This document shows positions 187 to 52,384 of a DNA stretch of 64,000 nt, in pieces. The translations under genes were made by a program, and so were the position numbers. The stretch lies in IMG/VR virus record IMGVR_UViG_3300022468_000772, positions 86,224 through 150,223 of that record. The stretch is one strand, 5' to 3'. The stretch comes from a virus. Its lineage: Duplodnaviria > Heunggongvirae > Uroviricota > Caudoviricetes. A model generated the notes under the pieces. That model did not search any database. It was not told where the DNA came from and saw nothing but the letters and a program-made list of their open reading frames with translations. Position 1 is the first letter of the stretch. The number at the start of each line of letters is the position of its first letter.

Positions 187-214
187 TTGACATACTGATC
201 TTTCATAGTAGAAT
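187..214 (+). promoter_or_regulatory. sigma70-type promoter upstream of the tRNA
   Basis: TTGACA (187-192), 16-nt spacer, TAGAAT (209-214), about 10 nt before the tRNA 5' end. Confidence 0.45.
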
Positions 215-224: not shown

Positions 225-300
225 GGGAGTTTAGTTAAGCGGTTATAACACAGAACTCATAATTCTGCAGTCTTGGGTTCGAATCCCGACGCTCCCACCA
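225..300 (+). tRNA. tRNA-Met (anticodon CAT; could be elongator Met or lysidine-modified Ile), CCA encoded
   Basis: Manual cloverleaf: acceptor GGGAGTT/CGCTCCC; D-stem GTTA/TAAC; anticodon stem CAGAA/TTCTG with loop CTCATAA; T-loop TTCGAAT; A73 then CCA at 298-300. Confidence 0.8.
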
Positions 301-2284: not shown

Positions 2285-2685
2285 TGACCCGAATTAATTC
2301 AAATATTCCACCTTCGGAATTGACTAGAGTACATCTAGTTGCTGAACTGCGTGAAATCACTATGGTGCCTGCCAGTTTGAAACGTTCTTTGCGTACTAAA
2401 ACACCCAAAGACGTTTTGATTGGCATTCCTAAAAATTTCACATTAAATGCAGGTCATGTCAAGTTTTTCCATAACAAGTTAGGCTTTCTCCAGAAGCGCT
2501 TCCATGCACTGGCTGATGAAATGGAGCGGCGCGGTTATACACCTGATAGAAGCCGTGATGTTGCCTTTACAGGCTTCGATGAAGAGTGGATGAACGACTG
2601 GCAATCAACAAAGGTTGACGATGACATAGTTCGCGATAGAATAGCTCTTCGCATATCAGAAAAACCGCATCTGTATAAAGATTGA
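2284..2685 (+). CDS. denV: pyrimidine-dimer DNA glycosylase (endonuclease V)
   Basis: N-terminus MTRINSNIPPSELTRVHLVAELREI matches T4 EndoV [31 protein letters not shown] and LGFLQKR are conserved. Confidence 0.85.
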   Translation: MTRINSNIPPSELTRVHLVAELREITMVPASLKRSLRTKTPKDVLIGIPKNFTLNAGHVKFFHNKLGFLQKRFHALADEMERRGYTPDRSRDVAFTGFDEEWMNDWQSTKVDDDIVRDRIALRISEKPHLYKD

Positions 2686-2701: not shown

Positions 2702-3634
2702 ATGTTTGAAAATTTAGTTTGGGAACAACGCTATAGACCAAAGACTATTAGCGACACTATTTTGCCGCCATCCACCAAGAAAATGTTGAACGATATTATC
2801 AAGACCGGTAATATTCCCAATATGTTGTTTGCTGGCTCCGGTGGTATCGGTAAGACAACTGCAGCACGTGCTATTGCTGATGAAGTTGATGCAGAAATGC
2901 TTTACATTAACGCATCGCTTGAAGGTAATATCGATACGATCCGCACAACGCTCACACAGTTCGTGAGTACCGTTTCCATGGAAGACCGTCGCAAAATTGT
3001 TTTGCTTGATGAATCCGATTATCTCTCGAATTCCGCACAGCCTGCTTTACGTGGGTTTCTGGATGAATTCTCCAGTAATGCATCTTTCATTTTCACCTGC
3101 AACTTCCCACAGCGTATTATTGATCCGTTGATTTCTCGTTTGCAAGTTATCGACTTCAAATTTGCCAAGACCGAAAAGGTCGATGCAATGAAGCAGATGC
3201 TATCACGTGCGGAATATGTTCTCACAACCGAAGGCATCACCTATGATAAAAAGGCTGTCGCAACACTGGTTGGTAAGTATTTTCCTGATTTCCGTAAGAC
3301 TCTGGGCCAACTTCAGAAGTTCTCTACTTCCGGTGAGATTACATCCGATATCCTGAGTTTTGGGGATGGTTCTGACATTGATGAACTGATTGGCTACGTG
3401 AAGGATAAAAACTTCTCAAAATGCCGCCAGTGGGTCGCTAATAGCTCTCCAGACGCATCAACGTTCTATCGTGCTATCTACGACAAGCTGCTGCCTATTT
3501 TGGTACCTGCAAGCATTCCTCCTGTCATTTTGGCTATTGCTGAATCTCAGTATCGTGCAAGTGCTACAATCGATCCAGAAATCAACACGGTTGCTTTCCT
3601 GATCCAACTAATGTCAACAGCACAATTTAAATGA
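2702..3634 (+). CDS. 44: clamp-loader large subunit (RFC-like AAA+ ATPase)
   Basis: EQRYRPKTISD, Walker A GSGGIGKTT, LLDESD and SRLQVIDF are collinear with T4 gp44. Confidence 0.9.
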   Translation: MFENLVWEQRYRPKTISDTILPPSTKKMLNDIIKTGNIPNMLFAGSGGIGKTTAARAIADEVDAEMLYINASLEGNIDTIRTTLTQFVSTVSMEDRRKIVLLDESDYLSNSAQPALRGFLDEFSSNASFIFTCNFPQRIIDPLISRLQVIDFKFAKTEKVDAMKQMLSRAEYVLTTEGITYDKKAVATLVGKYFPDFRKTLGQLQKFSTSGEITSDILSFGDGSDIDELIGYVKDKNFSKCRQWVANSSPDASTFYRAIYDKLLPILVPASIPPVILAIAESQYRASATIDPEINTVAFLIQLMSTAQFK

Positions 3635-4083
3635 AATACACTAGATCGATATTAGGATTTTCTGGCGAGTATCGATTTCTTTCTAACTTCTACCCAATTG
3701 AGTTTGAAGTAGATGGTGAGTTGTATACATCATCAGAGCAATACTACATGGCTGCTAAATGTGCAGACCCTCTGGAACGTGCTAAGATAATGGCTTTCGA
3801 CAAACCAAGTCTAATCAAGAAATTGGGTAGCAAGGTTAAGCTGGTTGAAGGTTGGGATGATGGATTGCGCGACAAAGCGATGATGACTGCTTTGAAGGCT
3901 AAATTCTCGACCCACTTAAAAGGTAGTCTGTATATGACTACCGGTGCCTATCTAGAAGAAACCAATCATTGGAACGATACCTATTGGGGTGTCTGTGACG
4001 GTGTTGGTCAAAATAAATTAGGTCGCATGTTGATGTGGTTGCGTGACCATCATCTGTTTAAAAATTTCGAGGATTGTCCTTAA
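3631..4083 (+). CDS. NADAR / YbiA-like (DUF1768) domain protein
   Basis: FSGEYRFLSNFYPIEFEVDGELYTSSEQYYMAAK is the NADAR signature; ATGA overlap with gene 44 and 10-nt overlap with gene 62. Confidence 0.7.
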   Translation: MKYTRSILGFSGEYRFLSNFYPIEFEVDGELYTSSEQYYMAAKCADPLERAKIMAFDKPSLIKKLGSKVKLVEGWDDGLRDKAMMTALKAKFSTHLKGSLYMTTGAYLEETNHWNDTYWGVCDGVGQNKLGRMLMWLRDHHLFKNFEDCP

Positions 4084-4487
4084 TGCCCTCCCCATTTGAT
4101 TACGTAAAATCATTTACATCCACAAAGGTGAACCTGTATGAGACAGAATCACTTTTCATAAAGGATTATGTACCCTTTGTTGTCAATCGTGCCCTGTCAA
4201 ATGATCCTAGGTGCGCTTTATTCGTGGATGCCATAGCTACCTACCCAGACCTAGATAAAAAGCTGCAGCACGACTTCTATTTCTATGGCCTACCCAAGTT
4301 GAAGACTGGTAGCATGTGGACAAAGAAACAGGATGCCGAACTGAATATGGATCATGTCAAGATACTGGCAACTGATCTTAATGTATCGATAGAAAGAGCT
4401 ATTGAGCTACTACCTTTGATTGACGAAGAAGAATTGGTTAACTATGCCAAACTACAGGGTGGCAAAGTGGGTAAGCGCGGGAAATAG
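4074..4487 (+). CDS. 62: clamp-loader small subunit
   Basis: NRALSNDPRCALFVDAIATYP aligns with T4 gp62 ENALSQFPECMPAVYAM; position right after gene 44. Confidence 0.7.
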   Translation: MSLMPSPFDYVKSFTSTKVNLYETESLFIKDYVPFVVNRALSNDPRCALFVDAIATYPDLDKKLQHDFYFYGLPKLKTGSMWTKKQDAELNMDHVKILATDLNVSIERAIELLPLIDEEELVNYAKLQGGKVGKRGK

Positions 4488-4526: not shown

Positions 4527-4530
4527 TATT

Positions 4531-4926
4531 ATGTCAGAAAACTTTGAATACGGTGTTGAAATCACTCTTCCCAAACCAGACTCCTTTGCTATCATTGTCG
4601 AGTCATTGACTCGTATCGGCATCAAATCCAAAAAATCCAATACCCTGTATCAAAGCTGCAGTTTGCTTCATAGGCGTGGTAAGTATTACATCATGCACTA
4701 TAAGGAATTTTTCAAGATTGATGGTAAACATGCTGAGATTGATGAAGAAGATTTACGTAGGCGGAATGAGATTACCAAGCTACTTGCCAAATGGGGACTC
4801 TGTGTTATAGTTGATAAAGATTCGGTTGCACTGGCAACACCAGAAACTCCGATTGATATTATTCCATTCAAAGTTAAAAAAGAATGGGCATTAATTCCTA
4901 AATACACGGTAGGTAAAAAGAAATAA
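4531..4926 (+). CDS. regA: translational repressor of early genes RegA
   Basis: LTRIGI, LYQSC.LL...G.YYI.H.KE and KEW.L.PKYT.G are collinear with T4 RegA. Confidence 0.85.
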   Translation: MSENFEYGVEITLPKPDSFAIIVESLTRIGIKSKKSNTLYQSCSLLHRRGKYYIMHYKEFFKIDGKHAEIDEEDLRRRNEITKLLAKWGLCVIVDKDSVALATPETPIDIIPFKVKKEWALIPKYTVGKKK

Positions 4927-4941: not shown

Positions 4942-5391
4942 ATGATTGATGTGAAATTTTTAGAACAGTTTGTCAGTAAATTGGATTTAAAAAACCCAAC
5001 CTTGGATAACAACTTTTATATATCAAAGGTTCAGAAAATAGCGTCAACCAGACTTATTGGTATGAATTTACCAAGAATGAGCGGAAAGACTGATGCTCTT
5101 GAACAATATGCACTGACTCGATCTGCATTACGTTTTGATGGTGTTCGGTGTAGATTTGTAACCCGCTTTGGAAATGAAAGTTATTTTGATAATTCTTTCA
5201 CCATAGGTAGTTTCCGTGGGCAACGTAGCAACGGTTTGAAATATCAATGCTGTGTGGCTGACGAATTCAATCTTCATATGAGAAAAGAAGGGGTTAAAGA
5301 TTTTTTCTGGCAAACTATCATTGATCTAAATAATGCAAATATGTTGACCGATGATTTTTATATCCTATATCTTGGTACTGAATTAGTATGA
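4942..5391 (+). CDS. hypothetical protein
   Basis: 149-aa ORF. Confidence 0.4.
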   Translation: MIDVKFLEQFVSKLDLKNPTLDNNFYISKVQKIASTRLIGMNLPRMSGKTDALEQYALTRSALRFDGVRCRFVTRFGNESYFDNSFTIGSFRGQRSNGLKYQCCVADEFNLHMRKEGVKDFFWQTIIDLNNANMLTDDFYILYLGTELV

Positions 5392-5615
5392 TCGATGACG
5401 GAAAAGGCCCCATTAACCAGATGTTAGATTCTGCACCACCAAGAGTATTCGGTGGTCGGTTTTTAGTCAAAGGCTCGACCTTCGATAATGGTGTTGACAA
5501 ACCATCTATCATGATTATAGTTACTGATCTGATTGACAAAAACTTTAAGATCAAATTCTTTAAGGATGCTGAATCTGCTGCCAGCTACCTTAAACTTCTC
5601 GACGCAGCAAAATAA
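5388..5615 (+). CDS. hypothetical protein
   Basis: 75-aa ORF; ATGA overlap with the previous ORF. Confidence 0.35.
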   Translation: MIDDGKGPINQMLDSAPPRVFGGRFLVKGSTFDNGVDKPSIMIIVTDLIDKNFKIKFFKDAESAASYLKLLDAAK

Positions 5616-5629: not shown

Positions 5630-5914
5630 ATGAGTATCGTGCAAACATCCCAAATCAACTTCCCTAACGATCCCGCAACCCTGAAGACCATTAAGGATGC
5701 ATTGTTTGAAATCAGCGCATCCATGACACGTGTAGAGGGTGAAAAAGATTTCCAGAAAGAAGCACTGAGTGATCTGGCTGAGAAAACCGAAGTGCCGGTC
5801 AAGTTTTTAAAGACATGTGCCTCCATTTACCATCGCCAGAATAAAGACCAAGTAGAAGGTGATAAAGAGGCAGTTTTTGAGCTTTATGACGCTATTTTTG
5901 GAGAGGCTTCTTAA
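5630..5914 (+). CDS. hypothetical protein
   Basis: 94-aa acidic ORF with RBS AAAGGAAAT. Confidence 0.4.
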   Translation: MSIVQTSQINFPNDPATLKTIKDALFEISASMTRVEGEKDFQKEALSDLAEKTEVPVKFLKTCASIYHRQNKDQVEGDKEAVFELYDAIFGEAS

Positions 5915-6836
5915 TAGCGTACCAACCTCTAAAAGGTACAACTTTATCTAAATGGTGGTTCATTTTAATAGGTGATCCACCATTTCTATATGATATTCGT
6001 AGTGCCGATTCTGGTAGACCATTTTCATTACAGTATTCGATAAAGTTACCGACTGCAGTGTGACGCAAAATACCAAGTTCATCAAAAATTTCAATAATCG
6101 AAGCAGTATTTGAGTTTGAACCTGATACCGCCAGTTTGTGATTTTCTTTATGTGTTTCTGACCATTCGTTAGGAATACCTATTTTAGAATCTGAGATTTT
6201 TTTTCTATGTTCTTGTGAAAGCGGCACACCTTTATTAGGATTTGAATATGATGGATTTAAATCAGACATCTTCTGATTTTTATTCCAAACAGGCTTTTCT
6301 TTGCGTGTCTTTTTAAATTTTTCGATTGTTTCTTCTGAATGTTTCTTACCTTTCATTCCAGAAACACGACCTTTGAGTGATGCACTTATCTTTTTCTTTG
6401 TTGCTTCCGAAGGCTTTCTACGTTTTTTGACACCTGCGCGAATATTTTCTAGTGCTGCTCCAGTTCTTTTTGGGTATTTCTTACCCTTTAATTTTGAAGC
6501 AACACCTTTGAGTGGATTATACTTTTCATCATATGCCATTTTTGATGCAAAGGCTCTGTTAATATAAAGTGGATTATTTGGAGCATTAACTGCTTTCTGC
6601 AACTTATTTTCTTTCTCTGTTGCCTCATCTCTCGTTTTAAATGTTTTTAAAATGATTGTTTTGAAAAGGTGAGGGCTTGTTGCTCTTTCTGAAGCCCAAA
6701 TGCTTTTAAACATTTTTGATGAAACACTACCGTTGTAGTTTTCATTTTGTATCCGGTTTACAGTTGTTGAGCCGATATAAAAAGGTGGAAGTTTGTTACC
6801 ACTATAGATAGTGAGATAGACGCAATAAATAGACAT
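5892..6836 (-). CDS. GIY-YIG homing endonuclease (Seg-like) with NUMOD3-type DNA-binding repeats
   Basis: IYCVYLTIY...FYIGST...R (GIY-x10-YIG-R); four repeats of S-E-x-x-K-K-I-S-x-S-x-K-G; opposite strand to flanking core genes. Confidence 0.75.
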   Translation of the reverse strand: MSIYCVYLTIYSGNKLPPFYIGSTTVNRIQNENYNGSVSSKMFKSIWASERATSPHLFKTIILKTFKTRDEATEKENKLQKAVNAPNNPLYINRAFASKMAYDEKYNPLKGVASKLKGKKYPKRTGAALENIRAGVKKRRKPSEATKKKISASLKGRVSGMKGKKHSEETIEKFKKTRKEKPVWNKNQKMSDLNPSYSNPNKGVPLSQEHRKKISDSKIGIPNEWSETHKENHKLAVSGSNSNTASIIEIFDELGILRHTAVGNFIEYCNENGLPESALRISYRNGGSPIKMNHHLDKVVPFRGWYAIKKPLQK

Positions 6837-7001: not shown

Positions 7002-9533
7002 ATGATCGAACAACAAATATATACACACGTTTCATCGCGATATGGAAAAATATTCTATCGTGGATATGAAATGAAGAATGGTAAAAAGGTTCGTGTACAT
7101 GGCAAGATTCCATTTTCTCCTACCATCTATCTTGAAACAGGTGAAGAGTCTGAATACAAGAGTATCTATGGTAAAAATCTGAAGCCAAAAAAGTTTGATA
7201 CCATTCCTGCAGCACGTGAGTATGTGAAGCAGTATAAGGATGTTCTCAAGCTGTACGGATATGAACCAAATCGTTGGCAGTATGAATTCATTGCCAAAAA
7301 CTATCCTAATCCAATGCAATCCATGGTGTCGGATTTGAAGGCTACAGGGTTCGATATTGAGACTCGTGTTGGGGTGAATGCGCCGCCGGGCGTACCTGAT
7401 CCCTACCTTGCCCTCGAAGAGATTACCCACATTGCTTTTGAGGATCATGCGACAGGTGAAATGGTCAGTTACACCACTGCACCTATCACCATCACAGAGC
7501 ATGAAGGCTGTAAACTGATTCGCTTCGATACTGAGGAAGAATTACTCGAAGCCATTATTCAATACATAGAGAAAGAAGACCCTGATATCATCTACGGTTT
7601 CTACTCCGAATTCTTTGATGTACCTTATCTTATCAACCGGATCAATCGGGTGTTGGGTGATGAAGTTGCAAATCGTCTGTCTCCATTTGGCATGATTGAC
7701 GAGCGTGAATACGAAGTGGATGAAGAGGTTCGTAAGGAATATACCATTGTTGGTAGAACACATTACGACATTCAAGCCATGTACCGAAAATTCGTTCTTC
7801 AGAAAGAAGAAAAGTACAGTTTGGATCATTTGGCAAAGGTGAATCTAGGCGTAGGTAAGCTGGAAAATCCATGCACGACATTCAAGCAGTTCAGTGAGTC
7901 CCCAGAGCATGTGAATCTGTTTGCACAGTACAACGTGATTGACACAAAACGTATGACACAGTTGGATAAGGCGAAGGGTCTGTTGGCTTTGGGTGTGATG
8001 CTGGCTTACACAATGAAATGCTCTTTTGAGGATGTGTATTCTCCGGTGCGGTATTGGGAGTGTAGTATCCAATCGATGCTGTTGAATGAGGGTAAGTTTG
8101 TTGCTATCAATCGGCAGAGCAATGGGAATGAGTCGATTCCGGGCGCGTATGTCTCAGAGCCAATTCCGGGCCTCTACGCATGGCTAATCTCCATCGATGC
8201 GGCATCGCTATACCCAAGCATTATGAAGGCTCTAAACCTGTCTCCCGAGACTCTGGTTGGTGTCAAGGATGGTGTCGATGTTGATCAACTTCTTTTGGGC
8301 AAAACACTCAAAGATTTTGGTATCACAGAAGACTATACACTGGCTGCTAACGGTGCCATGTTTAGAAAAGATGTGAAGGGTATCGTGCCACGTGTTGTTG
8401 ACTTTGCTCTGGGTGGTCGTAAGATTGCTAAGAACGAAATGTTGCGATTGAAGCAACTTTACGTTGATACCGGTGATGCGCAATACAAGGTTAAATCTGA
8501 CATTCAGAACGTGCTTCAGAACGCGCTTAAAACGGGCGCTAACAGTTTGTACGGAGTGTTCTTACAGCAAGGCTTCATGTTCTATGATCCTCGCCTTGGA
8601 AAGGCTATTACGCTGTCTGGTCAGTACATCATCATGAAGGTAGGTAGTCACTGTGATAAACGGTTCAATGAATTCTTCAAAACCGATAACCTGACATACA
8701 CTTTCTACAGCGATACCGATAGCTGCTACTTGAACATGCAGCCGGTGGTTGATAAGTATTGGAAGGATCAGCCCGACATGAAAATCGTGGATGCTCTGGA
8801 CAAGTTGATGGAAACAAAACTGCGACCATTTATCAACGAAGCTACTGATGAAATTGCAAGAGTGCAGAATCACTATGACAAGACCATCCACTTTAAACGT
8901 GAAGCAATTTCTTCTTCTGGTTTCTGGTGTGCAAAAAAGAAGTACGCTATCAAAGTGTATGACAACGAAGGTGTGCGATATCCAGAGGGTGATTACAAGA
9001 TCATGGGTATCGAAGTGGTGCGATCCAGTACACCACAGCTAGTGCGTGACAGATTGAAAGAAGCTGTTAAACTGATTATTGATGGCAAGTTGCAAGAGAC
9101 ACGAGATTTTGCAGCGGCTGTTAGAAAAGAGTTTGATGGATGCTCGGTTGCGGAGATTGCGTTTCCGGGTGGCGCTAACAATCTCGCCAAATGGCGTGAT
9201 CCTAACAAGATTTACAACAAGGGCACACCAATCGCTGCTAAGGCTTCTTTGCTCTACAACAAACTGTTGGCAGGTGTGGAGAATGGTCTTGAAAAATACG
9301 ATGCGATTGGTGAGGGTGACAAAATTAAGTTCATTTACATTGATGAACCTAATCCCATTAGAGAAAAAATCATCGGCTTCATAGATGACTTGCCGGTTGA
9401 ATTTGGTCTACACAAATACATTGATAGAGCAGTTCAATACGAGAAGACTTTTAAGAATCCGTTGAACAATATTTTTAAGGCTGTTGGTTGGCAATTGGAA
9501 GAGCAAGTAACGCTTGACGAGTTTTTTGGGTAG
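7002..9533 (+). CDS. 43: family B DNA polymerase
   Basis: 843 aa. Exo I FDIET, exo II YGFYSEFFDVPYL, DAASLYPS (motif A), KTGANSLYG (motif B), YSDTDS (motif C); collinear with T4 gp43. Confidence 0.92.
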   Translation: MIEQQIYTHVSSRYGKIFYRGYEMKNGKKVRVHGKIPFSPTIYLETGEESEYKSIYGKNLKPKKFDTIPAAREYVKQYKDVLKLYGYEPNRWQYEFIAKNYPNPMQSMVSDLKATGFDIETRVGVNAPPGVPDPYLALEEITHIAFEDHATGEMVSYTTAPITITEHEGCKLIRFDTEEELLEAIIQYIEKEDPDIIYGFYSEFFDVPYLINRINRVLGDEVANRLSPFGMIDEREYEVDEEVRKEYTIVGRTHYDIQAMYRKFVLQKEEKYSLDHLAKVNLGVGKLENPCTTFKQFSESPEHVNLFAQYNVIDTKRMTQLDKAKGLLALGVMLAYTMKCSFEDVYSPVRYWECSIQSMLLNEGKFVAINRQSNGNESIPGAYVSEPIPGLYAWLISIDAASLYPSIMKALNLSPETLVGVKDGVDVDQLLLGKTLKDFGITEDYTLAANGAMFRKDVKGIVPRVVDFALGGRKIAKNEMLRLKQLYVDTGDAQYKVKSDIQNVLQNALKTGANSLYGVFLQQGFMFYDPRLGKAITLSGQYIIMKVGSHCDKRFNEFFKTDNLTYTFYSDTDSCYLNMQPVVDKYWKDQPDMKIVDALDKLMETKLRPFINEATDEIARVQNHYDKTIHFKREAISSSGFWCAKKKYAIKVYDNEGVRYPEGDYKIMGIEVVRSSTPQLVRDRLKEAVKLIIDGKLQETRDFAAAVRKEFDGCSVAEIAFPGGANNLAKWRDPNKIYNKGTPIAAKASLLYNKLLAGVENGLEKYDAIGEGDKIKFIYIDEPNPIREKIIGFIDDLPVEFGLHKYIDRAVQYEKTFKNPLNNIFKAVGWQLEEQVTLDEFFG

Positions 9534-9542: not shown

Positions 9543-9573
9543 ATAAGCATGGTTACAGGTAGACCATGCTTAT
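9543..9573 (+). promoter_or_regulatory. perfect 11-bp stem hairpin after the gene 43 stop
   Basis: ATAAGCATGGT / ACCATGCTTAT around loop TACAGGTAG; no T-tract follows, so terminator function is uncertain. Confidence 0.35.
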
Positions 9574-9599
9574 TAATCAACACTACCAAAAGGAAACTT

Positions 9600-10499
9600 A
9601 TGTTTAGACTACTCGTTAAAACCCATAACAAAACGGGTTTAAATTATCTCTGCGTGACAGAGAAAGAAAATTATGAAAAGTATGCTGGCTCTGGTCTTTA
9701 CTGGAAGCGTCATATTAAAGAACATGGAAGCGACATAACTACTGTTGTTCTTTATGAATCTGAAACTAAAACACAAGATTTTATAGATACATGTCTATAC
9801 TACTCTACTATTTTAAATGTAGTTGAATCATCCGAATGGGCGAACCTAATACCTGAAAATGCTAATTCTGTTGGATATAGAAGTTCTTCTAATGAAGAAA
9901 CTATATTCAAGATAAAAAGTGGTTTAAAAAGATTTTATGAGTCTGAAGAATCTATCAAAACTCGTGATTCCATTTCCAAAAGAATGAAACATCTATGTTC
10001 CGATCCGGTATATAGAGAAGAGATGGCTTTACGTCGATCTGAATATGTTGCCAATATCGAAAATCGTGAGACAATATCTAAGCAAATGAAAGATTTTTGG
10101 AAAAATGCAGATTCAGAATTTAAACACTCGCATAGCGAGAAAACATCTATAGGCCGTTTGCTGATGTCTGAAGATGCTAAGAAATCTAGAGCAGACAAAA
10201 TCACAAAAAGTTTTGCTAATTCTGAAAAGAGAAAAGAATTTGAGCTAACGATGAAAACTGACAGATTGGGTGGCAAAAACCCATATGCTAGGCAAGTTTA
10301 TTATTATGGTAAAATTTTTGATACTCGAACATCTTTTTATGACTATATAAAATCAATAGGTGTAAGTAAAAATTCAGTTATTATGAAGCTCAGATATAAA
10401 ACCGATCCTGAATGCTATTTAGTAGATAGAGTTAACGATAGTCTCTCCAAAACTATCAACCAAACTAAGGAAATAAAATATGAATCCACTAATGAGTAA
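9600..10499 (+). CDS. second GIY-YIG (Seg-like) homing endonuclease
   Basis: GLNYLCVTEKENYEKYAGSGLYWKRHIKEHG fits GIY-x11-YIG-x-R-x-H; C-terminal NUMOD-like repeats; RBS AAAAGGAAA before the ATG at 9600. Confidence 0.6.
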   Translation: MFRLLVKTHNKTGLNYLCVTEKENYEKYAGSGLYWKRHIKEHGSDITTVVLYESETKTQDFIDTCLYYSTILNVVESSEWANLIPENANSVGYRSSSNEETIFKIKSGLKRFYESEESIKTRDSISKRMKHLCSDPVYREEMALRRSEYVANIENRETISKQMKDFWKNADSEFKHSHSEKTSIGRLLMSEDAKKSRADKITKSFANSEKRKEFELTMKTDRLGGKNPYARQVYYYGKIFDTRTSFYDYIKSIGVSKNSVIMKLRYKTDPECYLVDRVNDSLSKTINQTKEIKYESTNE

Positions 10500-28118: not shown

Positions 28119-30146
28119 TTAGACTTCCTTGTCAACCAATTCAGCAGTGGCCTTGATTTTCTTGGACAGACCGAAGTTCATTTCCAGAGTTGTATTTTCA
28201 TACGAACCCAAATCAGTGAACCACTTGCGACCCAAAATTACACCAAACTTGGCCTTGATGATCTTGTCACGCAGTGTAGCGATGTTACCCTTCAGGAGCT
28301 TTAGAGCAGTTTCGTTATCGGTCACAGGTGCCAAATCCTTCAGTACATTAGCAACCACTTCCTTAGAAGGGGTCAGGCTCTTGCCAGCAGCGATATCGGC
28401 TTCCACATCGGAGATTTTGGGGATGCTGTTCAGACCAGACAAACCAATCTCCAGTGCCTTAGCAACGTATGCATCGACACTTTCGCCTTTGACAGACTTG
28501 GGGGAAAACCCGCTTGGCGTCACACCATACTGTTTCAGGAACAAAGCACCTTCTGCACCGTACTTCTTAGCGAAGTCTTCGGAGAATTCAGGTTTCTCAA
28601 TTCGCGAATTCAGAATCTTCTGTGCAACACGCAATTTGTACAGGTCAAACTGCCATGTAAACATGTCTTTAGCGGTCACAGGAGCCGCCATGGAGCGATT
28701 GATGACAGGCATGTTGGATACATCGATCACATACGTTGCATTGATCTTGAAAGGCTCCAGAGGAATGCCATTTTGAACCAACAGATCGTATGTTGCTTTG
28801 GTCAACACCACAGGCAACTTCTTCACATTCACAATACCATCACGAATGATAGCATAGTTGCGCCAGATGAAACTTTCCACAGAGTTACCAAAGCCCAATT
28901 CATTGTCAGGCAGAGAAACAGTACCATCACGGCGAGTCAGGATCGACACGTTAGGCCGGTCTTCATCAAATTTCAATGTGCTGATAGCAGCCTTCACTTC
29001 ACCTTCTTTGGAAGAGAATTCTGGCTTGAAACCGCCTTCATCAGCCACCACTTCACGCTTGCCACCGATAGCATTGTAGCTGAATTCGGGGTGAGAAATG
29101 TGCAACAGGTTACCTTCGGTGTCTGCCAAATCCATCAACAAAGTCAGCACGTTGTATGCATTGGGGTCTTGCTTCAGCTTCAGATTGCGTGGCTTATCCT
29201 TGAACGGTTCGTAGTCACCAACAAAGGATACCACACGGTTGAAGTCTTGCTTTGAGAATGCATTCTGTACAACATTGAACAGAGATTCATCACCGATCAG
29301 ACCAGACAGTTCCAAAGCCTTGTCAGATTCACCACGTTGGATCAATGCACCCACCACTTGAACAGCAGCGAATTCATCTTCAACGGTTTCAATATCACCG
29401 GAACCTTGGAAGAAAGAGTAAGCAATGCAATTCGAGGGGAATGCTGCTTTACCGGATGCGTCAGGCTTGACAGTCACATAGCTTTGATCCATATGACCCA
29501 CAATCAGGGTGTCCAGAGGCAAACCTTCAACCACTTTGCGCTTACCAGAAGAACGAGTAGTCAAAGAACGTGTCAGAACGTCAGTATAGGATTGGAAGTC
29601 ACCAGCACCGATCATTTCACCACCCATTTCTTCAGCCATTTGGGTCAGGAAAGCATCATCGGCATAGTAGCCATAGGAAACCACCACAGAGCTTGCAACA
29701 TGGTCAGCGACCTTGGTACACACCTTGATGATTTCGGAGCGTGAGGATTGGTTTTCGCCACCGTCAGACATGAATGTCATGGATACTGGTCGGTCAGTGC
29801 TATCGATAGCCAACTGTACCACCTTTTCCAGAGGGTCTTTGAAACCGGTCAGGCCACGTGCAACCAAGAAACGGTCAATAGCGGTATTGACGCTTTGCAG
29901 GTCTTTGGCAGTCGAGATTTGCAGGTTTTCGAAGATGGTGCCGCAATCGCCACGTGAAGAGAACCAAATCAGTGTCAGCGTGTCTTCTGGTTCGACCAAT
30001 GTAGGCAGCTTGTTTTTCAGGTGATTGCGCAGCTTAGGTAGTTCGCCATACATGCTTCCAGAGCAGTCAACCACCACAATACGATGCATAGGAATGACAA
30101 CTGCTACTTCAGCCTTGTCTTCGAAATGTTTTGTCACAAGTTTCAT
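28119..30146 (-). CDS. large von Willebrand factor A (vWA) domain protein with long C-terminal extension
   Basis: VVVVDCSGSM (MIDAS DxSxS) at the N-terminus, then TLIWFSS...G and MSDGGEN; 675 aa from the M of MKLVTKH (RBS AAGGAAA). Confidence 0.6.
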   Translation of the reverse strand: MKLVTKHFEDKAEVAVVIPMHRIVVVDCSGSMYGELPKLRNHLKNKLPTLVEPEDTLTLIWFSSRGDCGTIFENLQISTAKDLQSVNTAIDRFLVARGLTGFKDPLEKVVQLAIDSTDRPVSMTFMSDGGENQSSRSEIIKVCTKVADHVASSVVVSYGYYADDAFLTQMAEEMGGEMIGAGDFQSYTDVLTRSLTTRSSGKRKVVEGLPLDTLIVGHMDQSYVTVKPDASGKAAFPSNCIAYSFFQGSGDIETVEDEFAAVQVVGALIQRGESDKALELSGLIGDESLFNVVQNAFSKQDFNRVVSFVGDYEPFKDKPRNLKLKQDPNAYNVLTLLMDLADTEGNLLHISHPEFSYNAIGGKREVVADEGGFKPEFSSKEGEVKAAISTLKFDEDRPNVSILTRRDGTVSLPDNELGFGNSVESFIWRNYAIIRDGIVNVKKLPVVLTKATYDLLVQNGIPLEPFKINATYVIDVSNMPVINRSMAAPVTAKDMFTWQFDLYKLRVAQKILNSRIEKPEFSEDFAKKYGAEGALFLKQYGVTPSGFSPKSVKGESVDAYVAKALEIGLSGLNSIPKISDVEADIAAGKSLTPSKEVVANVLKDLAPVTDNETALKLLKGNIATLRDKIIKAKFGVILGRKWFTDLGSYENTTLEMNFGLSKKIKATAELVDKEV

Positions 30147-30377
30147 AATTAAAGTTTCCTTTGTTGTTGAGTTTAATATTCTACCACGGTTTTTTGGTTT
30201 GTACAGTGCGTTCGTCAAACAGTTTTTAGGTCTATACCAAAATGCTTTTCTAGATCATTACTGATGATGTCAACTCCGTAATTATCAGCATGTACAAAAA
30301 CACATTCCTGAATAAGTAGTTTTGCAAACTCATTTTGTTCAGGTGTAAATTCGATATTCGCAATTAGAGCAATCTTC

Positions 30378-33498: not shown

Positions 33499-33609
33499 TT
33501 AAAAATATTTTAGAACACAGGCAACAATAATTGCGATTGCTGCTATATAAACAATACCCTTTACAAGGGCTTTTGTGGCACGTGCCTCTTCTTCATCATA
33601 CCAATCCAT
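33499..33609 (-). CDS. small single-TM protein (36 aa)
   Basis: MDWYDEEEARATKALVKGIVYIAAIAIIVACVLKYF. Confidence 0.25.
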   Translation of the reverse strand: MDWYDEEEARATKALVKGIVYIAAIAIIVACVLKYF

Positions 33610-34042
33610 TTTTATCCTCCCATGGTAATACAGGGTCAGCGATCCAGCGCCGACGCATACGATCCATTGCCTCTGCAGGCACATTGTGAATAGAACCGAA
33701 AGAGCCATGCACGGAAATCACTTGCGGGATAATTCCAAGTTGCAGTGCAATTTCAAAGTAAGGGTTCAGTTCACGCTGAGTAGTGAAAGTGTTGGATACA
33801 ACAACACTCCAACCTTCTTGCAGCTTTTGCGCCACATTAGACTCACACCAGTGATGTGCAGCACCGAGCTTATTCAGGTCGAAGTTGTAGTTACCTTGCT
33901 TGTCATAGAAGTACATGTCAGCTTCATAATGACGCCATCCACCATCCATAGCAATCTTTCGGGCAATGGTACTTTTACCCGAGCCCGGCAAACCCCTCAC
34001 AATCACAAAGTAGGGTTTGGTCTTACCATCCGATGCTTGCAT
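33596..34042 (-). CDS. P-loop kinase (candidate polynucleotide 5'-kinase)
   Basis: Walker A VRGLPGSGKST directly at the N-terminus, as in the T4 Pnk kinase domain; 148 aa. Confidence 0.5.
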   Translation of the reverse strand: MQASDGKTKPYFVIVRGLPGSGKSTIARKIAMDGGWRHYEADMYFYDKQGNYNFDLNKLGAAHHWCESNVAQKLQEGWSVVVSNTFTTQRELNPYFEIALQLGIIPQVISVHGSFGSIHNVPAEAMDRMRRRWIADPVLPWEDKNGLV

Positions 34043-34238
34043 AATAAATTTCCTTCTTGTAGTTGAAAGCAGCACGAACTGCTTCTGGATATACGACATA
34101 CCACAAATTGTCCAATGCAGACATTGTGGTTCCACGAACTGTGCAACGACCTTTACTGTCTGTCTCACGCATCAACTCTTTGTGCATTGCTTCAATGATT
34201 TGTTCGCCAATTTTGATTGCGTCAGACTTAGTGATCAT
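34023..34238 (-). CDS. hypothetical protein
   Basis: 71-aa ORF. Confidence 0.35.
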   Translation of the reverse strand: MITKSDAIKIGEQIIEAMHKELMRETDSKGRCTVRGTTMSALDNLWYVVYPEAVRAAFNYKKEIYYASIGW

Positions 34239-35714: not shown

Positions 35715-36284
35715 TCAGTCTCCGTGATGCGTTGACCTTGTTTCAAATTGGAGACACTTACGAATTTCTTCCAGAGAATATGGTTTCATATCCCCTGCAG
35801 CACGTGTATCAATACCAACATCCATACACTTTCCGGTGTTTGGCTGTTGATAGTTTGAATGCCGATGACCATGCAGATGTGTTGAACCGTATCTTGACGA
35901 ATCCCATGATTCAATCGGGAAATGACACAGGATGTAAGAAGTCTTCCCAATCTTCAATTTCTTGTAGTCTTGGATAGACGCAAACACGCCCATGAATCGC
36001 AATTCGCTTTCATCATCATGGTTACCGAGAATCAGATGATGGTTGCAATGATCAGAAATCCGGCGCAGCAGCTTTTTGGTTTCATCATATTTGCCAAAGG
36101 TAATGTCGCCCAGATTCCACAGGTCGCCACCCTCTGGAACGGTGTTAATCACATTATAAATGATCAGTTCATTCATTTCTTCGAGGGTCGAACCCTTACG
36201 CGAGAATGGGCAGAATTGCTGAATTCTTTTATGGAAAAGATGCCAATCCGAAGTGAAGTATGGTTGTTGTTCAATTTTATTCAT
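35715..36284 (-). CDS. calcineurin-like metallophosphoesterase
   Basis: TSDWHLFH (DxH), LGDITF (GDxx), LGNHDD (GNHD/E), HGHRH; start at the M of MNKIEQQ. Confidence 0.6.
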   Translation of the reverse strand: MNKIEQQPYFTSDWHLFHKRIQQFCPFSRKGSTLEEMNELIIYNVINTVPEGGDLWNLGDITFGKYDETKKLLRRISDHCNHHLILGNHDDESELRFMGVFASIQDYKKLKIGKTSYILCHFPIESWDSSRYGSTHLHGHRHSNYQQPNTGKCMDVGIDTRAAGDMKPYSLEEIRKCLQFETRSTHHGD

Positions 36285-36291
36285 ATGTTGA

Positions 36292-36597
36292 TTATACACC
36301 AAAAATCTTGTTGTATTCACTTTTTGAAATTTTTTTGTAGTAGCCATGTTCAGAAAGTGATACATATTCCCCATTTAAAATTTTCTCTCTTAGGGGTTTA
36401 AACAATTCCTCAACAGTGAATTCCTCATATGCGCGATATTGTACCATATCATGAGCATCCTGTAATGTTATCTCATTTTTTGCCATACATTCTCGCGTTA
36501 AAGCACCAATAAATGATTGAACAATTAGTAATGTAGTTTGATCTAAACGTGATCCAACAACCTTTTTGTCAAATTCTTCGCGGAGTCTTGACTCCAT
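36292..36597 (-). CDS. hypothetical protein
   Basis: 101-aa ORF. Confidence 0.4.
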   Translation of the reverse strand: MESRLREEFDKKVVGSRLDQTTLLIVQSFIGALTRECMAKNEITLQDAHDMVQYRAYEEFTVEELFKPLREKILNGEYVSLSEHGYYKKISKSEYNKIFGV

Positions 36598-36923: not shown

Positions 36924-37859
36924 TCACAGAGTAGAGTTCAACAGATTGCGCATGTATTCCAGACGGTCTTGCTCAGGCATTACCTTAAACAATTCATCAT
37001 TACGCAGTTTTTCAATCAGAGGATAAAATTCTTCCTCAACACGAGCCATGTTCAGTGCCATGATATCAGCCTTACGAGCCACCATCTTTTGGAACAGGTA
37101 AGCCTTAGACTTGATCTTGATCATTTCACCTTTAGTGTAGTTGAAGATCACATAACCTTCATGTGGTGCCTCACGTGCCATTTTCACAGCATCTACGAAC
37201 CGCATATCAGGAATAGGGTCATACCACTCAGACACTTCAGCATACTTTGCAATTTCTTGAAAAGCAGAATCACCATAGGTCAGCATCAATCGTGCATTGT
37301 CGAACGAATAGAATTCGGTACCTTGGTAAATAATTGAGAGTAGATAAGCACCATACTTTTCAGGAATGATGTGTGGATCGTCAGGATGGCAAATCTCAAA
37401 CATATAGGTAGTTTCAGGGCACAGGGTTGATGGATCAATATCCTTCAGATACGTTTCGGCATATCCAACAAAATCAGAATCCAGAGAGCCAGTAGTACCA
37501 ATGAGCAGCTTACCGTTGTAAACACTCAAGGATGCCATGAATCCATTCACCTTGCGAGAAACACCCACAAATGTCCGTGGATGCCAGTCTACACCAGCAC
37601 CGTTTTCTTGGTAGTTGTAGATTTTCTTGAATGGTAATTGAACCACATTGAAATCAGCATCCACAACCAAACCACGGCAGTGACGCAGCATTTCGTTTTG
37701 ATCCCACAAATTGTTGAAAAATACACGACGAGTGTACTTCAGTACAGACAGACCTTGATAGCGCTTAGACTCTTTACGAGTCACCAGACGAGGATTGTTC
37801 AGAACGAATTCTTTGAGATTTTCACGGTCAATACCGTAGTTGTGCGAAGTGAGTTCCAT
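36924..37859 (-). CDS. rnlA: RNA ligase 1 (T4 Rnl1 / gp63-like)
   Basis: LRHCRGLVVD aligns with T4 LECRGIMFE; LPFKKIYNY with RPMEKFFNL; motif I SRKVNGFMASLSVYNGKLLIGTTGS with [24 protein letters not shown]. Confidence 0.7.
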   Translation of the reverse strand: MELTSHNYGIDRENLKEFVLNNPRLVTRKESKRYQGLSVLKYTRRVFFNNLWDQNEMLRHCRGLVVDADFNVVQLPFKKIYNYQENGAGVDWHPRTFVGVSRKVNGFMASLSVYNGKLLIGTTGSLDSDFVGYAETYLKDIDPSTLCPETTYMFEICHPDDPHIIPEKYGAYLLSIIYQGTEFYSFDNARLMLTYGDSAFQEIAKYAEVSEWYDPIPDMRFVDAVKMAREAPHEGYVIFNYTKGEMIKIKSKAYLFQKMVARKADIMALNMARVEEEFYPLIEKLRNDELFKVMPEQDRLEYMRNLLNSTL

Positions 37860-42225: not shown

Positions 42226-43275
42226 TTAGTACCCCCGCTTTAGCAAATAACTGTTGGAAACTGACTTAAAGGTAAAGCGATCACCCTTGTTTGACTTAAA
42301 TACAACACCTTCGCGCATCAGATTCTTCAGATCACCGATTCGGCTAGGCTCAGAAGCTGCATAGTTCAGGAAATCATCAGAAGTCATTCCACGGATATCA
42401 AAATCCGTTTCCAATACTGGCACGGTCTTGATTTGCAAAAAGTCAGCCAATGCCTGCATTTCTTTTGGTGTGTAGTATTTCTGTGCATCAATGTCATAAA
42501 CATCGAACAGACGGTATTCCCACGCACCTAGATTGTAGTAGTTGCCCTGGACAGCAGGCCCGATTGTTTCGAACTGCAGTGCAATATTAGGACAGAAACT
42601 AGCCAGCTTCTCTTTTAGATTATTAGCGAAAGCAGGCTGCGTGAAAGGTGAATTCATGATCACATCTTGATCTTCCAGCTTCAGGCGCAGGTTGCGAGAG
42701 CAGATACCAAAATCACCGTCACGTTGGAAAACAGTCACAGAGGAACCTTCAGCCTTTTCTTCGATAGTGAAAGTGGCATCGGGGTTCTTTTCCAGATAGT
42801 TTTCCACGGAACGCATGAAGTTCTGAATACGTTCTTGGTCGGTCTTTGGAATGAAGCTAGGGAATGAACCCATGGCATTCACAGGTACACGCTCTGGCTC
42901 TGGTTCCCACTTGATGATACCAAGCAGTTCCGTAACATCTAGACCTTCAACGAATTGTGTTGGATCATTGAATTCTGCAGGAATAGGTAGCAGCAAACCT
43001 TGACTCAGTGCGCCTTTCAGCTTGATGGTCTTCAGACGCTCACCGTCGATACCCTTGTAGTTCTTGGGGTATTTGTCGGCTTTGGTCAAGAATGGTGCAA
43101 TAGTGTTTGGCATCCATGAGTCACACTCACAGTAGACAACCAAGTCACCAACAGCGTACTTGTCCTTCTGGTCAATCACGCGCCACCCACCGATCCGATA
43201 CTGCACAATGCGGTCAGCACCTTCGATGGCAATTACTTCTTCAATTCGTGCAATATATGCAAGTTTACGTGTCAT
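42226..43275 (-). CDS. ATP-dependent RNA ligase, Rnl5-like (N-terminal OB-like domain plus adenylyltransferase)
   Basis: N-terminus MTRKLAYIARIEEVIAIEGADRIVQYRIGGWRVIDQKDKYAVGDLVVY parallels NgrRnl MGVRKLATIR...PIAGAEAIECCHVDGWTCVIKKGEFKQGD; motif I EEKAEGSS (KxxG). Confidence 0.5.
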   Translation of the reverse strand: MTRKLAYIARIEEVIAIEGADRIVQYRIGGWRVIDQKDKYAVGDLVVYCECDSWMPNTIAPFLTKADKYPKNYKGIDGERLKTIKLKGALSQGLLLPIPAEFNDPTQFVEGLDVTELLGIIKWEPEPERVPVNAMGSFPSFIPKTDQERIQNFMRSVENYLEKNPDATFTIEEKAEGSSVTVFQRDGDFGICSRNLRLKLEDQDVIMNSPFTQPAFANNLKEKLASFCPNIALQFETIGPAVQGNYYNLGAWEYRLFDVYDIDAQKYYTPKEMQALADFLQIKTVPVLETDFDIRGMTSDDFLNYAASEPSRIGDLKNLMREGVVFKSNKGDRFTFKSVSNSYLLKRGY

Positions 43276-45584: not shown

Positions 45585-46382
45585 TTAAACTTCTACAACT
45601 TCAATCGAGAAATATTTTGGTAGTGTCTCATAAATCACATATCCACGTGGGTTGCTAAGAATCCGAGTACCGTGAATGAAGTAATCAACCGGAAAGTGTG
45701 TATGACCATGAATCCAAACACTAGGCCATCCAGCACTGATTACATCTTCCATATCGGTACAGCAATAGAATGGTGTCAAACGTGTAATATTTGACTCCGA
45801 GCGATAATGTGGTGCATGATGTGTAAAAACAACACGATTCTTCATGCCAGTATTGTGATCAGTCAAACGCTCATATAAAAAGTTTTTATGCTCGTAATGC
45901 TTTTCAATACCTTTTACTGGTGTAAATGTACTTTCATCAATTTCCCTGTAATCATTCATTGCATTACCAGAGATAATAGCCATTGGATCAGATTTGTTCA
46001 AATCTGTCCAGAGAGTGGCACCAATTAGATGACAGTCACCTTCCATATGCTCAAGCATTTCTCCAAAGTCGATATTTGTAATACCAGCCTCTCGGAAATA
46101 ATCGTAAACAATATTTTTTGCTTCGAAGAATGAGGAACCGTAATACTCGTGATTCCCAGAAATCCAAAGGACACGTTTGTATTTGGTTGAAACACGATCT
46201 AAGAAATCTCGAATGCTGTGACTCATATATGTGTCGTACATACCGGGTCGAAGAAAACGTATTTCGCCCACATCACCAGCCAGAATCAAAACATCCGCCT
46301 CTGGAAATTCAAAGTCGGTTGGTATGCCTGCAGTTTTATCAATGTCCAAATGCAGGTCTGAACAATAAGCAATTTTAATCAT
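45585..46382 (-). CDS. calcineurin-like metallophosphoesterase (second copy)
   Basis: YCSDLHLD (DxH), LAGDVGE (GDxxE), ISGNHEYY (GNHE), GHTH. Confidence 0.6.
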   Translation of the reverse strand: MIKIAYCSDLHLDIDKTAGIPTDFEFPEADVLILAGDVGEIRFLRPGMYDTYMSHSIRDFLDRVSTKYKRVLWISGNHEYYGSSFFEAKNIVYDYFREAGITNIDFGEMLEHMEGDCHLIGATLWTDLNKSDPMAIISGNAMNDYREIDESTFTPVKGIEKHYEHKNFLYERLTDHNTGMKNRVVFTHHAPHYRSESNITRLTPFYCCTDMEDVISAGWPSVWIHGHTHFPVDYFIHGTRILSNPRGYVIYETLPKYFSIEVVEV

Positions 46383-49202: not shown

Positions 49203-49543
49203 AGGTATGGCGCGTTTGGATCATCCCAACGCCTGATAGGATGGTCAAATGGTCTATATGGCAGAGGATCAACAGGCACTTTCTTTTTTGGAGGGAATAA
49301 CTTATTGATATCATCAAGAGTCAAACCCTGTTGTTTAGGCGCGGGAGTTTTCGGATCATCCTTTTTGACAGGGTTCAGGATATTCCCGAGAGAAATCCAA
49401 AGATCACGTGCGTCATCCATGGACAGGTTGTGTACAACACCATCCAACTCAATTGTTACTGTAGCTTTTACCGACATATAAGTTCCCCTGTAATATCTTC
49501 TAATATAACTTCGATTGTTTCCATCATTACTTGATTTCATCAA
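49196..49543 (-). CDS. hypothetical protein
   Basis: 115-aa ORF. Confidence 0.4.
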   Translation of the reverse strand: MMKSSNDGNNRSYIRRYYRGTYMSVKATVTIELDGVVHNLSMDDARDLWISLGNILNPVKKDDPKTPAPKQQGLTLDDINKLFPPKKKVPVDPLPYRPFDHPIRRWDDPNAPYLC

Positions 49544-50939: not shown

Positions 50940-50952
50940 TGTTTGTTCTTTC

Positions 50953-51336
50953 TCAATATGAAACTTCACCGGCTCGATCAAAGTATTTCTTGCCAGTTTT
51001 CTTTGCATCGATAGTATACACGATTTTCCTGCGCCAGTCGCCTGATTTGATATCTTTTTCAGTCACAAACTGATTCGGTTCCCAATGATGATACTTTTTA
51101 TAGCAACGCTCAATATCAACCATGTCTTCATCGGTCAGTTGCGCGTCTTTGTTGTTTGTGTCTATGCGCTTTTCATAGAGGCATCCCTTTTTCATACCCT
51201 CAAAAGAGTATTTGTAAAGAGGCATAGCAGTAACACCATCAACAGGCATCACATCACCAACAATCCCATTCCAGATAGTGATTTCTGGATTACCTTTGAT
51301 CTTGGAAAGAATCTCGATTAGTTTATTCTTTCTCAT
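50953..51336 (-). CDS. hypothetical protein
   Basis: 127-aa ORF. Confidence 0.4.
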   Translation of the reverse strand: MRKNKLIEILSKIKGNPEITIWNGIVGDVMPVDGVTAMPLYKYSFEGMKKGCLYEKRIDTNNKDAQLTDEDMVDIERCYKKYHHWEPNQFVTEKDIKSGDWRRKIVYTIDAKKTGKKYFDRAGEVSY

Positions 51337-51730: not shown

Positions 51731-52384
51731 TTATTGTGTTGCTTGCCAGCGACGGAAGTTTTCTTCGGCCTTCTTATTGTACTCGACAAAAGCGCCAGTG
51801 TATAGATTTTCCCATGTTTGGAAACTAACTTTGATACCCTCTTCTACACTCCAGATGTCGGCAAACATTGTTTCATCGACAGCAGGTGTGTACACAAATG
51901 TGGTGCAATAAAAATCTCGTCCATCACCACCAACCACAATCTCGCTGAAGATGGGTACGAACAATTCAGAACGCAGGTTCAGACCAGTTTCTTCAGCAGT
52001 CTCACGCACGATGGCTTGATGGATAGTCTCACCAGCGTCTTGTTTACCGCCCGGCAGCGCAAGAATATCCGTGTTTCGGCGTGTTGTTGTCAACACCTTA
52101 CCGGATGTGCTATGAATGATCACGGCTGCAGAGTTAGCGAGTGTACGCTTACTTGTATCTACATAAGTTTGTTGAGGGATAGCCGGTGTCTCAGATTTAG
52201 CCAAGACAAAGTAGACTTCAATATTGTCTTCGCGCTGAAAATCTGCGCATGCGATACCTTCACAAAAGTTTTTTCTTTCACCAGTAGTATCAAAATGACA
52301 GATACTACATGGATTTGGTGTGCTTCCAACGACAATTGGGATTACTTTAACTCCACCCCAAGTTTCAACAGCTAAATTTTTCAT
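51731..52384 (-). CDS. Nudix hydrolase with N-terminal Cys cluster
   Basis: Nudix box GGKQDAGETIHQAIVRETAEETGL (Gx5Ex7REUxEExGU); N-terminal CSICH...CEGIAC. Confidence 0.75.
   Translation of the reverse strand: MKNLAVETWGGVKVIPIVVGSTPNPCSICHFDTTGERKNFCEGIACADFQREDNIEVYFVLAKSETPAIPQQTYVDTSKRTLANSAAVIIHSTSGKVLTTTRRNTDILALPGGKQDAGETIHQAIVRETAEETGLNLRSELFVPIFSEIVVGGDGRDFYCTTFVYTPAVDETMFADIWSVEEGIKVSFQTWENLYTGAFVEYNKKAEENFRRWQATQ

Follow-up and report, generated by a model that had tools for sequence, protein, structure and literature searches.

A YbiA-type NADAR gene between the clamp-loader genes 44 and 62 in a clade of uncultured T4-like phages

The clamp-loader locus

We have analysed a stretch of 64,000 nucleotides of viral DNA (hereafter the window; IMG/VR record IMGVR_UViG_3300022468_000772, positions 86,224 to 150,223), in which an open reading frame (ORF) of the NADAR superfamily lies between the homologues of the T4 clamp-loader genes 44 and 62. 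The gene 44 homologue (2702..3634, + strand) encodes the large, AAA+ subunit of the clamp loader, a protein of 310 aa that matches Gp44_lid (9.7e-16), AAA (4.9e-14) and phrog_168 (2.6e-100), with DNA_pol3_delta2 as a further Pfam match. The gene 62 homologue, for the small subunit of 134 aa (4083..4487, +; PF16790 Phage_clamp_A 2.6e-8, phrog_225 7.4e-20), is followed in the same orientation by regA, which encodes a translational repressor (4531..4926, +; PF01818 2.9e-37, phrog_242 3.4e-46). The DNA polymerase gene is found at 7002..9533. The order gp44, gp62, regA on one strand is that of the T4-type operon, except that 44 and 62 neither abut nor overlap directly, since a gene of 453 nt intervenes. 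This gene (3631..4083, +) starts with ATG and encodes a stand-alone, YbiA-type NADAR protein of 150 aa. It had been proposed in an earlier note on this DNA, made from the letters alone, and it is present exactly as claimed there, motifs included.

The GC content of the NADAR gene (40.8%) is close to that of the window as a whole (40.9%), such that composition gives no signal of a recent horizontal acquisition. Elsewhere in the 64 kb, searches with hidden Markov models or tblastn found no second NADAR, gp45 clamp, Alt-like ADP-ribosyltransferase (ART) or TAGT glycosyltransferase.

The NADAR protein

By every sequence and structure criterion, the ORF at 3631..4083 belongs to the NADAR superfamily. 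Its match to PF08719 (E=4e-19) covers residues 13-139 and, at 69.9 bits, exceeds the gathering threshold of 35.1; together with the match to phrog_1017 (E=1.5e-38) this lies far beyond chance. The protein contains the motifs FSGEYRFLSNFYP and EQYYMAAK. Among solved structures, a sequence search found E. coli YbiA (2b3w, E=2.2e-15) and the NADAR-ADP-ribose complex from Phytophthora (8bau, E=2.5e-10), and with a profile of 26 homologues these matches rose to 1.3e-29 and 5.6e-21, respectively, while no other solved NADAR chain was matched by this profile even at E<=1. An AlphaFold2 model built on the alignment of the 26 homologues had a mean predicted local distance difference test score (pLDDT) of 93.5 and a predicted template modelling (TM) score (pTM) of 0.87. 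Compared with the PDB by Foldseek, the model matched the same two structures, YbiA 2b3w with a TM score of 0.82 and the Phytophthora protein PnNADAR 8bau with 0.81, both at a probability of 1.00, and nothing else in the PDB was significant. The profile search and the structure prediction, which the earlier note had named as checks, thus both came out in favour of the NADAR assignment.

The same is true of the catalytic glutamate, whose loss would have spoken against the assignment. When the window protein was mapped onto 8bau by a HMMER alignment, Glu36 (codon 3736..3738, +) corresponded to E43 of PnNADAR and to E36 of T4 AdfN, and it is invariant in the 26 homologues. Lys43 (3757..3759, +) corresponds to PnNADAR K50 and T4 AdfN K43 and is nearly invariant (at least 90% of the 26), and a second glutamate, Glu110 (3958..3960, +), corresponds to E125 and is invariant in the homologue set. 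In the stretch from Asp116 to Trp119 (D-T-Y-W; 3976..3987, +), D116 and W119, likewise invariant among the 26, are the counterparts of D130 and W133. In PnNADAR, E43, K50, E125, D130 and W133 are the catalytic and ADP-ribose-contacting residues (Schuller et al., PMC11543638), and T4 AdfN is inactivated by the E36A substitution (PMC11257639).

The position of E125 also distinguishes subtypes within the superfamily. Glutamate is found there in proteins of the YbiA type and histidine in the T4-type phage NADARs, whereas in the DarT1-linked NADAR antitoxins a nearby aspartate functionally replaces the glutamate (PMC11543638). With E110, the window protein is of the YbiA type. At 71.3 bits it falls below the cut-off of 73.7 for TIGR02464, the equivalog of riboflavin-intermediate N-glycosidases; in PADLOC it matches the candidate PDC-M42C, and there is a weak match to the "NADAR family anti-phage protein" of NCBIfam. 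The NADAR core begins at about residue 7, leaving no N-terminal extension.

Relatives and history of the locus

The region from 2600 to 4600 of the window had no megablast match among 50,697 GenBank phage records, and all 703 tblastn matches of the NADAR protein in phage records were below 60% identity. The best cultured match of gp44, at 50% identity, was from the Synechococcus phage BUCT-ZZ01, followed by Acidovorax ACP17, Stenotrophomonas DLP_6 and Methylophilales Melnitz. Because the region is without megablast match and gp44 is at most 50% identical to that of cultured phages, we take the source to be an uncultured, divergent T4-like phage.

Nonetheless, the order gp44-NADAR-gp62-regA is no recent accident. 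It recurs in at least nine distinct uncultured contigs, with NADAR identities to the window of 48-92%. These are L001-L003 from IMG/VR (91-92%; equal to L009, L010, L095 and L096), L091 (74%), L093 (57%) and L094 (51%) from Logan, and L097 (56%), L098 (50%) and L107 (48%) from IMG/VR; in L094, gene 44 and NADAR are separated by an additional ORF (87 aa, unknown family). The remaining 70-odd best IMG/VR relatives of the NADAR protein, at 50% identity or less, sit in unrelated contexts, many of them on jumbo-phage contigs, and one homologue with 61% identity (P0006) likewise has a different location.

A neighbour-joining tree of gp44 groups the NADAR carriers into a single clade, whose gp44 proteins are 59-87% identical to that of the window. 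A sister clade (L011, L014, L015 and L020; gp44 about 60%) is without the insert, its genes 44 and 62 either overlapping by ATGA or lying a few nucleotides apart, and BUCT-ZZ01, which also has no insert between 44 and 62, branches outside both clades. The simplest history is therefore a single insertion at the exact junction of the gene 44 stop and the gene 62 start, followed by vertical descent.

We compared the four operon genes between the window and L001. The number of nonsynonymous substitutions per nonsynonymous site (dN) was lowest for NADAR (0.043), followed by regA (0.056), gp44 (0.099) and gp62 (0.13); dN was used here instead of dN/dS because the synonymous counterpart, dS, was saturated (at least 1.7 or undefined). 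The lowest dN of the four genes argues for strong purifying selection on the NADAR protein.

The slot directly 5' of gene 44 is held in the window by denV, a gene for a pyrimidine-dimer glycosylase (PF03013; 2284..2685, +). In T4, BUCT-ZZ01 and L094 this slot is occupied by the sliding-clamp gene 45, of which tblastn with two gp45 queries found no match across the 64-kb window.

Gene junctions and expression

The NADAR start and the gene 44 stop overlap in the sequence ATGA (3631..3634, +). The same ATGA is found in L091, L093 and L097, and L001-L003 have TAATG at this junction. At the other end, the gp62 proteins of all relatives share an N-terminus of the form M-x-SPFD, whose equivalent in the window begins at the in-frame ATG at 4083, and because of this conservation ATG 4083 is the probable start of gene 62. 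The NADAR stop and the probable gene 62 start hence overlap by 1 nt in TAATG (4081..4085, +), as they do in L093 and L097, with ATGA in L001-L003 and L107, TTGA in L091 and overlaps of 8-14 nt in L098 and L094. The earlier note had claimed a coupling of NADAR to both neighbours, by an ATGA overlap with gene 44, which is real, and by an overlap of 10 nt with gene 62, which presupposed a TTG start at 4074 and reduces to the single shared nucleotide.

A Shine-Dalgarno sequence for gene 62, GAGGA (4069..4073, +), lies at a good distance from ATG 4083 and inside the C-terminal codons of NADAR (..FEDCP), and GAGGA is also present in L001-L003 and L091. Upstream of the NADAR start no Shine-Dalgarno sequence is evident. 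Because the NADAR start shows no such signal and shares nucleotides with the gene 44 stop, NADAR is probably translated by termination-reinitiation, that is, by ribosomes that finish gene 44 and start again on NADAR. Since NADAR in turn carries the Shine-Dalgarno sequence of gene 62 and its stop overlaps the gene 62 start, it would relay translation, handing ribosomes on to gene 62 through the overlapping stop and start.

In T4, genes 44 and 62 are 1 nt apart. They are reportedly translationally coupled there, and gene 44 is said to be a target of RegA; our search of the literature on this coupling returned nothing directly usable. For the window, we infer co-translation of 44, NADAR and 62, and any control by RegA, from the layout of the genes, and the NADAR protein would then be made early, together with the replication proteins.

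As for transcription, no terminator was found on the + strand between gene 44 and regA. A sigma-70-like promoter candidate, TTGACG-16-TAGAAT (10 of 12 matches; 2615..2642, +), lies within the 3' end of denV, about 60 nt ahead of gene 44. Promoter-like sites across the region were not in excess (29 found, 22 expected from shuffled sequences), so that this site is a candidate only. An internal promoter for NADAR was considered and rejected, since gene 44 contains only weak matches (9 of 12) and the regional count of promoter-like sites does not exceed that of the shuffles.

How unusual the position is

For a wider view of the junction we used 68 IMG/VR loci in which gp44 is at least 38% identical to that of the window and both 44 and 62 are present, including five close relatives with NADAR at the junction. 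Genes 44 and 62 were adjacent in only 8 of these loci, and in the other 60, mostly cyanophage-like, they were separated by 165-2863 nt of other ORFs. This cargo comprises families of small unknown ORFs (in the cyanophage-like loci, L021-L088) as well as a Dam methyltransferase of the D12 class (PF02086, E=3e-30), whose family is found in 27 loci, e.g., in L024 at 2867..3733. With inserts in 60 of 68 loci, the 44/62 junction is a recurrent site for accessory genes. The earlier note had held that 44 and 62 are adjacent in T4 and most of its relatives; this is borne out for T4, BUCT-ZZ01 and the sister clade, but it does not extend to the wider relatives, and the suggestion that the insert is exceptional is weakened accordingly, the junction being a common insertion site among them.

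These numbers invite the view that NADAR is a passenger in a permissive junction, kept only since its removal would disturb the translation of gene 62, in which case its position would be meaningless and its benefit perhaps marginal. The cultured T4-like phages ACP17 and Bhz51 indeed keep related NADARs far from gp44, the positions of NADAR and gp44 being 1.7 and 74 kb, respectively, in ACP17, and 97 and 20 kb in Bhz51. However, a mere passenger would hardly be expected to show a lower dN than the three other operon genes, or to retain all catalytic residues across a clade whose gp44 proteins have diverged down to 59% identity. Both observations point to selection on the NADAR protein itself, and we regard the passenger explanation as very improbable.

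The NADAR clade stands out by which gene it carries at the junction and by how tightly this gene is coupled to both neighbours. In the literature, we found no paper that describes a NADAR gene in a clamp-loader context, and the paper on AdfN is without mention of it. The novelty is that NADAR resides in the clamp-loader operon throughout a clade and in probable translational coupling, the protein class and its function being known already.

Possible function of the NADAR gene

On balance, we favour the reading that the NADAR ORF encodes an active, stand-alone ADP-ribosylglycohydrolase that repairs ADP-ribosylated guanine in the phage DNA as a counter-defence. The toxin DarT1 ADP-ribosylates guanine in single-stranded DNA (ssDNA), a modification that NADARs reverse (PMC11543638), and the toxin blocks the replication of phages (PMC11543638, PMC11825919). 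A target in ssDNA and a block to replication would suit the expression of a NADAR alongside the replisome. The protein would remove ADP-ribose from guanine in the phage DNA, and the phage could thereby replicate in hosts with DarT1-type defences, as is the case for phages with AdfN-Bas32, AdfN-Bas60 and AdfN-T4. The activity, the substrate and the role in counter-defence are predictions from sequence and predicted structure, and we rate them likeliest because this function is established for the NADAR class and is held by the nearest tested relative. The embedding among replication genes modestly favours a role directed at DNA.

The published background for this reading is recent. T4 gp30.3 (AdfN) was identified as a DNA ADP-ribosylglycohydrolase that is necessary and sufficient for growth on cells with DarTG1 (Johannesman, Carlson, LeRoux; PMC11257639). 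The NADARs of the phages Bas32 and Bas60, which are unrelated to gp30.3, likewise rescue phages sensitive to DarTG1, and they also neutralise DarT1 in the absence of infection (PMC11257639; PMC11825919, Nat Commun 2025), and every phage NADAR tested so far hydrolyses ADP-ribosylated guanine in DNA (PMC11825919, PMC11125620). The closest characterised homologue of the window protein is the validated anti-DarTG1 enzyme AdfN-Bas32 (bas32_0066) of the Escherichia phage IrisVonRoten/Bas32 from the BASEL collection, with 39% identity over 137 residues (E=3e-27). Both are single-domain proteins of about 150 aa with the motifs E..K, E-x-N-x-W-x-D-x-Y-W-G-V-C and G-x-N-x-L-G; AdfN-Bas32 also remains under the TIGR02464 cut-off (66.3 against 73.7) and matches PDC-M42C and, weakly, the NCBIfam anti-phage NADAR. 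Like the window gene, it belongs to a lytic phage, where it is found among early genes of nucleotide and DNA metabolism. It differs in that Bas32 is a member of the Demerecviridae rather than a T4-like phage, and in that its gene lies outside the clamp-loader operon, where it comes after a short gene of hypothetical product in the vicinity of RNase H and thymidylate synthase. The proposal of the earlier note that the gene counters DarT1 is reasonable in the light of this homologue, though it is not a new one for the class.

Several points weigh against this reading. E. coli YbiA and T4 gp30.3, though active in vitro, did not rescue uninfected cells from DarT1 toxicity (PMC11125620), and the window protein is itself of the YbiA type. 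In one member of the clade (L094, NADAR at 5001..5438, P0013), Lys43 is replaced by asparagine; the copy may have degenerated or taken on another purpose, or the assembly may be in error. No DarT or other ART was seen in the window, including an Alt-like ART, for which tblastn found none. Moreover, the junction takes unrelated cargo, and hence the position of NADAR may say little on its function, and the overlaps with its neighbours may persist because gene 62 needs the coupling rather than because NADAR does. Finally, NADARs act on more than DNA: ADP-ribosylated guanosine in RNA was a substrate of all NADARs tested (PMC11833690), and ADP-ribosylated cytidine is cleared by those of the YbiA type (PMC12945103), such that the physiological substrate of the window enzyme may be a different one.

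This last point leads to an alternative in which the chemistry is the same and DarT1 is not the natural opponent, the target being instead RNA guanosine, cytidine or the product of a toxin other than DarT (of the YarT, pierisin/ScARP or Rhs type). A YbiA-like protein is the antitoxin of YarT, an ART unrelated to DarT (PMC11125620), and further candidate defence systems that contain a NADAR have been listed (PADLOC PDC-M42C, NCBIfam NF053876). Glu110 and the best solved-structure match, YbiA, also place the window protein with the subtype for which cytidine was reported. Against this stand the closest characterised homologue, which counters DarTG1 in vivo (PMC11825919), and the location of the gene within a DNA replication operon, while the RNA-repair genes of the window are 30-40 kb away. 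We consider a target other than DarT1-modified DNA unlikely, though by no means far-fetched.

A role in small-molecule metabolism seems clearly less probable. The protein could be an N-glycosidase of riboflavin intermediates, as YbiA is classically held to be, or could act on soluble ADP-ribose derivatives or immune signals alongside the salvage of NAD+ (nicotinamide adenine dinucleotide). Its TIGR02464 score is just under the cut-off, the window encodes a nicotinamide mononucleotide (NMN) adenylyltransferase, PnuC and a Nudix hydrolase, and Iyer et al. proposed that phage NADARs act mainly on soluble ADP-ribose derivatives (PMC9503650). But a place below the equivalog cut-off is shared with the anti-DarTG1 enzyme of Bas32, the NAD+ genes lie about 55 kb from a NADAR gene that is coupled to replication genes, and the phage NADARs studied so far are all active on guanine in DNA, as described above. 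Furthermore, no riboflavin genes were found with family libraries among the ORFs scanned, which are part of those in the window.

Returning to counter-defence against DNA ADP-ribosylation, one might go further and imagine NADAR as an accessory of the replisome. Made in a fixed ratio with the clamp loader through the translational relay from 44 via NADAR to 62, it would clear ADP-ribosyl-guanine from the ssDNA template at the replication fork, perhaps while attached to the clamp or the clamp loader by its conserved C-terminal tail (..HHLFKNFEDCP), and the insert could in addition govern the ratio of gp44 to gp62. The hints for an accessory of this kind are only the co-translation and the C-terminal tail, and as a clamp-binding motif the tail was rejected: it is conserved in the closest sub-clade only, and its FED codons double as the Shine-Dalgarno sequence of gene 62, which explains the conservation at the level of the DNA and makes binding a speculation. 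We hold a replisome accessory to be improbable, if slightly less so than a small-molecule enzyme.

The favoured counter-defence enzyme can be set apart from other known NADARs. AdfN-T4 (gp30.3; PF08010, Phage_30_3) is likewise a NADAR-fold enzyme of a T4-like phage and shares the numbering of E36 and K43, but the similarity in BLASTP is marginal (E=0.023 over 40 residues), the window protein has no PF08010 match, AdfN-T4 has histidine at the position of Glu110 (PMC11543638) and its locus is the gene 30 / alt region. Orthology was therefore rejected, and the two are independent acquisitions; AdfN-T4 also appears specialised for hydroxymethylated DNA. E. coli YbiA (a riboflavin-intermediate N-glycosidase that hydrolyses ADP-ribosyl-guanine in vitro) resembles the window protein in having the core domain without extensions and the glutamate of its type; it differs in being encoded by the host, under LexA control in the dinG-ybiB operon, and its equivalog is the one whose cut-off the window protein does not reach. 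With DarG1, the DarT1-associated NADAR antitoxin, the window protein shares the superfamily and the predicted chemistry on guanine in DNA. However, its neighbours are gp44 and gp62, it has no adjacent DarT1 or other ART and no N-terminal extension, and it has glutamate rather than the functional aspartate. For want of an adjacent DarT and of the extension, it is not an antitoxin of the DarG1 type, and among solved NADARs its profile matched YbiA and 8bau alone. A loose analogue, likened by context alone, is the NADAR of the E. coli sigma70 operon (rpsU-dnaG-rpoD), a stand-alone NADAR in a core replication and transcription operon, which hydrolyses ADP-ribosyl-guanine and partly rescues DarT1 toxicity (PMC11125620). 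It is a bacterial chromosomal gene, and its partners are primase and a sigma factor rather than a clamp loader.

Phage NADARs have only recently been recognised as an enzymatic counter-defence against DNA ADP-ribosylating toxin-antitoxin systems. With the locus described here, the class would come to include an uncultured branch of T4-like phages and the YbiA/Bas32-like subtype, in the form of a gene long fixed inside a translationally coupled clamp-loader operon. It opens no new kind of biology. The position does provide a natural setting in which to test whether the removal of ADP-ribose runs in step with replication or is physically linked to it, and the gene is an example of an inserted gene that has turned into a link in a chain of translational coupling.

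Other genes in the window and in its relatives

Genes for NAD+ salvage, namely a nicotinamide-nucleotide adenylyltransferase (59632..60684) and a PnuC-like NMN transporter (60894..61508), and a gene for a Nudix hydrolase (51731..52408) are found on the minus strand, and they suggest that the phage also counters NAD+-depleting defences. The minus strand further carries an RNA-repair-like set consisting of two RNA ligases (Rnl1-like and Rnl2-like PHROGs), a polynucleotide kinase-like ATPase and two phosphoesterases, at 33596..34168, 36924..37859, 42226..43275, 35715..36374 and 45585..46382. The NAD+ salvage, Nudix and RNA-repair genes are 30-57 kb from NADAR and on the other strand. An ATP-dependent DNA ligase is encoded at 49527..51008.

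A homing-endonuclease gene of the GIY-YIG/NUMOD3 type (313 aa; 5892..6836, -) lies between a DsbA-like ORF (5630..5914), with which it overlaps at the 3' ends, and the DNA polymerase gene. It is present in L001-L003 at 72% identity and absent from the equivalent position in L091. Between the DNA polymerase gene and uvsX, an ORF of 316 aa (9549..10499, +) was without a match in Pfam or PHROG. In L091, the ORF at the equivalent position has a weak match to PF20286 (divDNApol), and the gene calls divide the polymerase into shorter pieces. In L067, L070 and L071 (IMG/VR), gene 44 is interrupted, with about 1.1 kb between its two parts, suggestive of an intron, an intein or an endonuclease insertion.

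Near the replication operons of two NADAR carriers are genes for a TAGT-family glycosyltransferase (PF20691) and NT5C/CTP-transferase-like proteins (L093 916..1908, L094 8388..9176), which hint at DNA hypermodification in the NADAR clade; in the window, the search for a TAGT homologue found none. A VWA-domain protein of 699 aa (28119..30218, -) strongly matches phrog_2426, of unknown function (4e-120). The best promoter-like site between positions 1 and 7200 of the window, TTGACA-16-TAGAAT (187..214, +), is directly followed by a gene for tRNA-Met (CAT) at 225..300.

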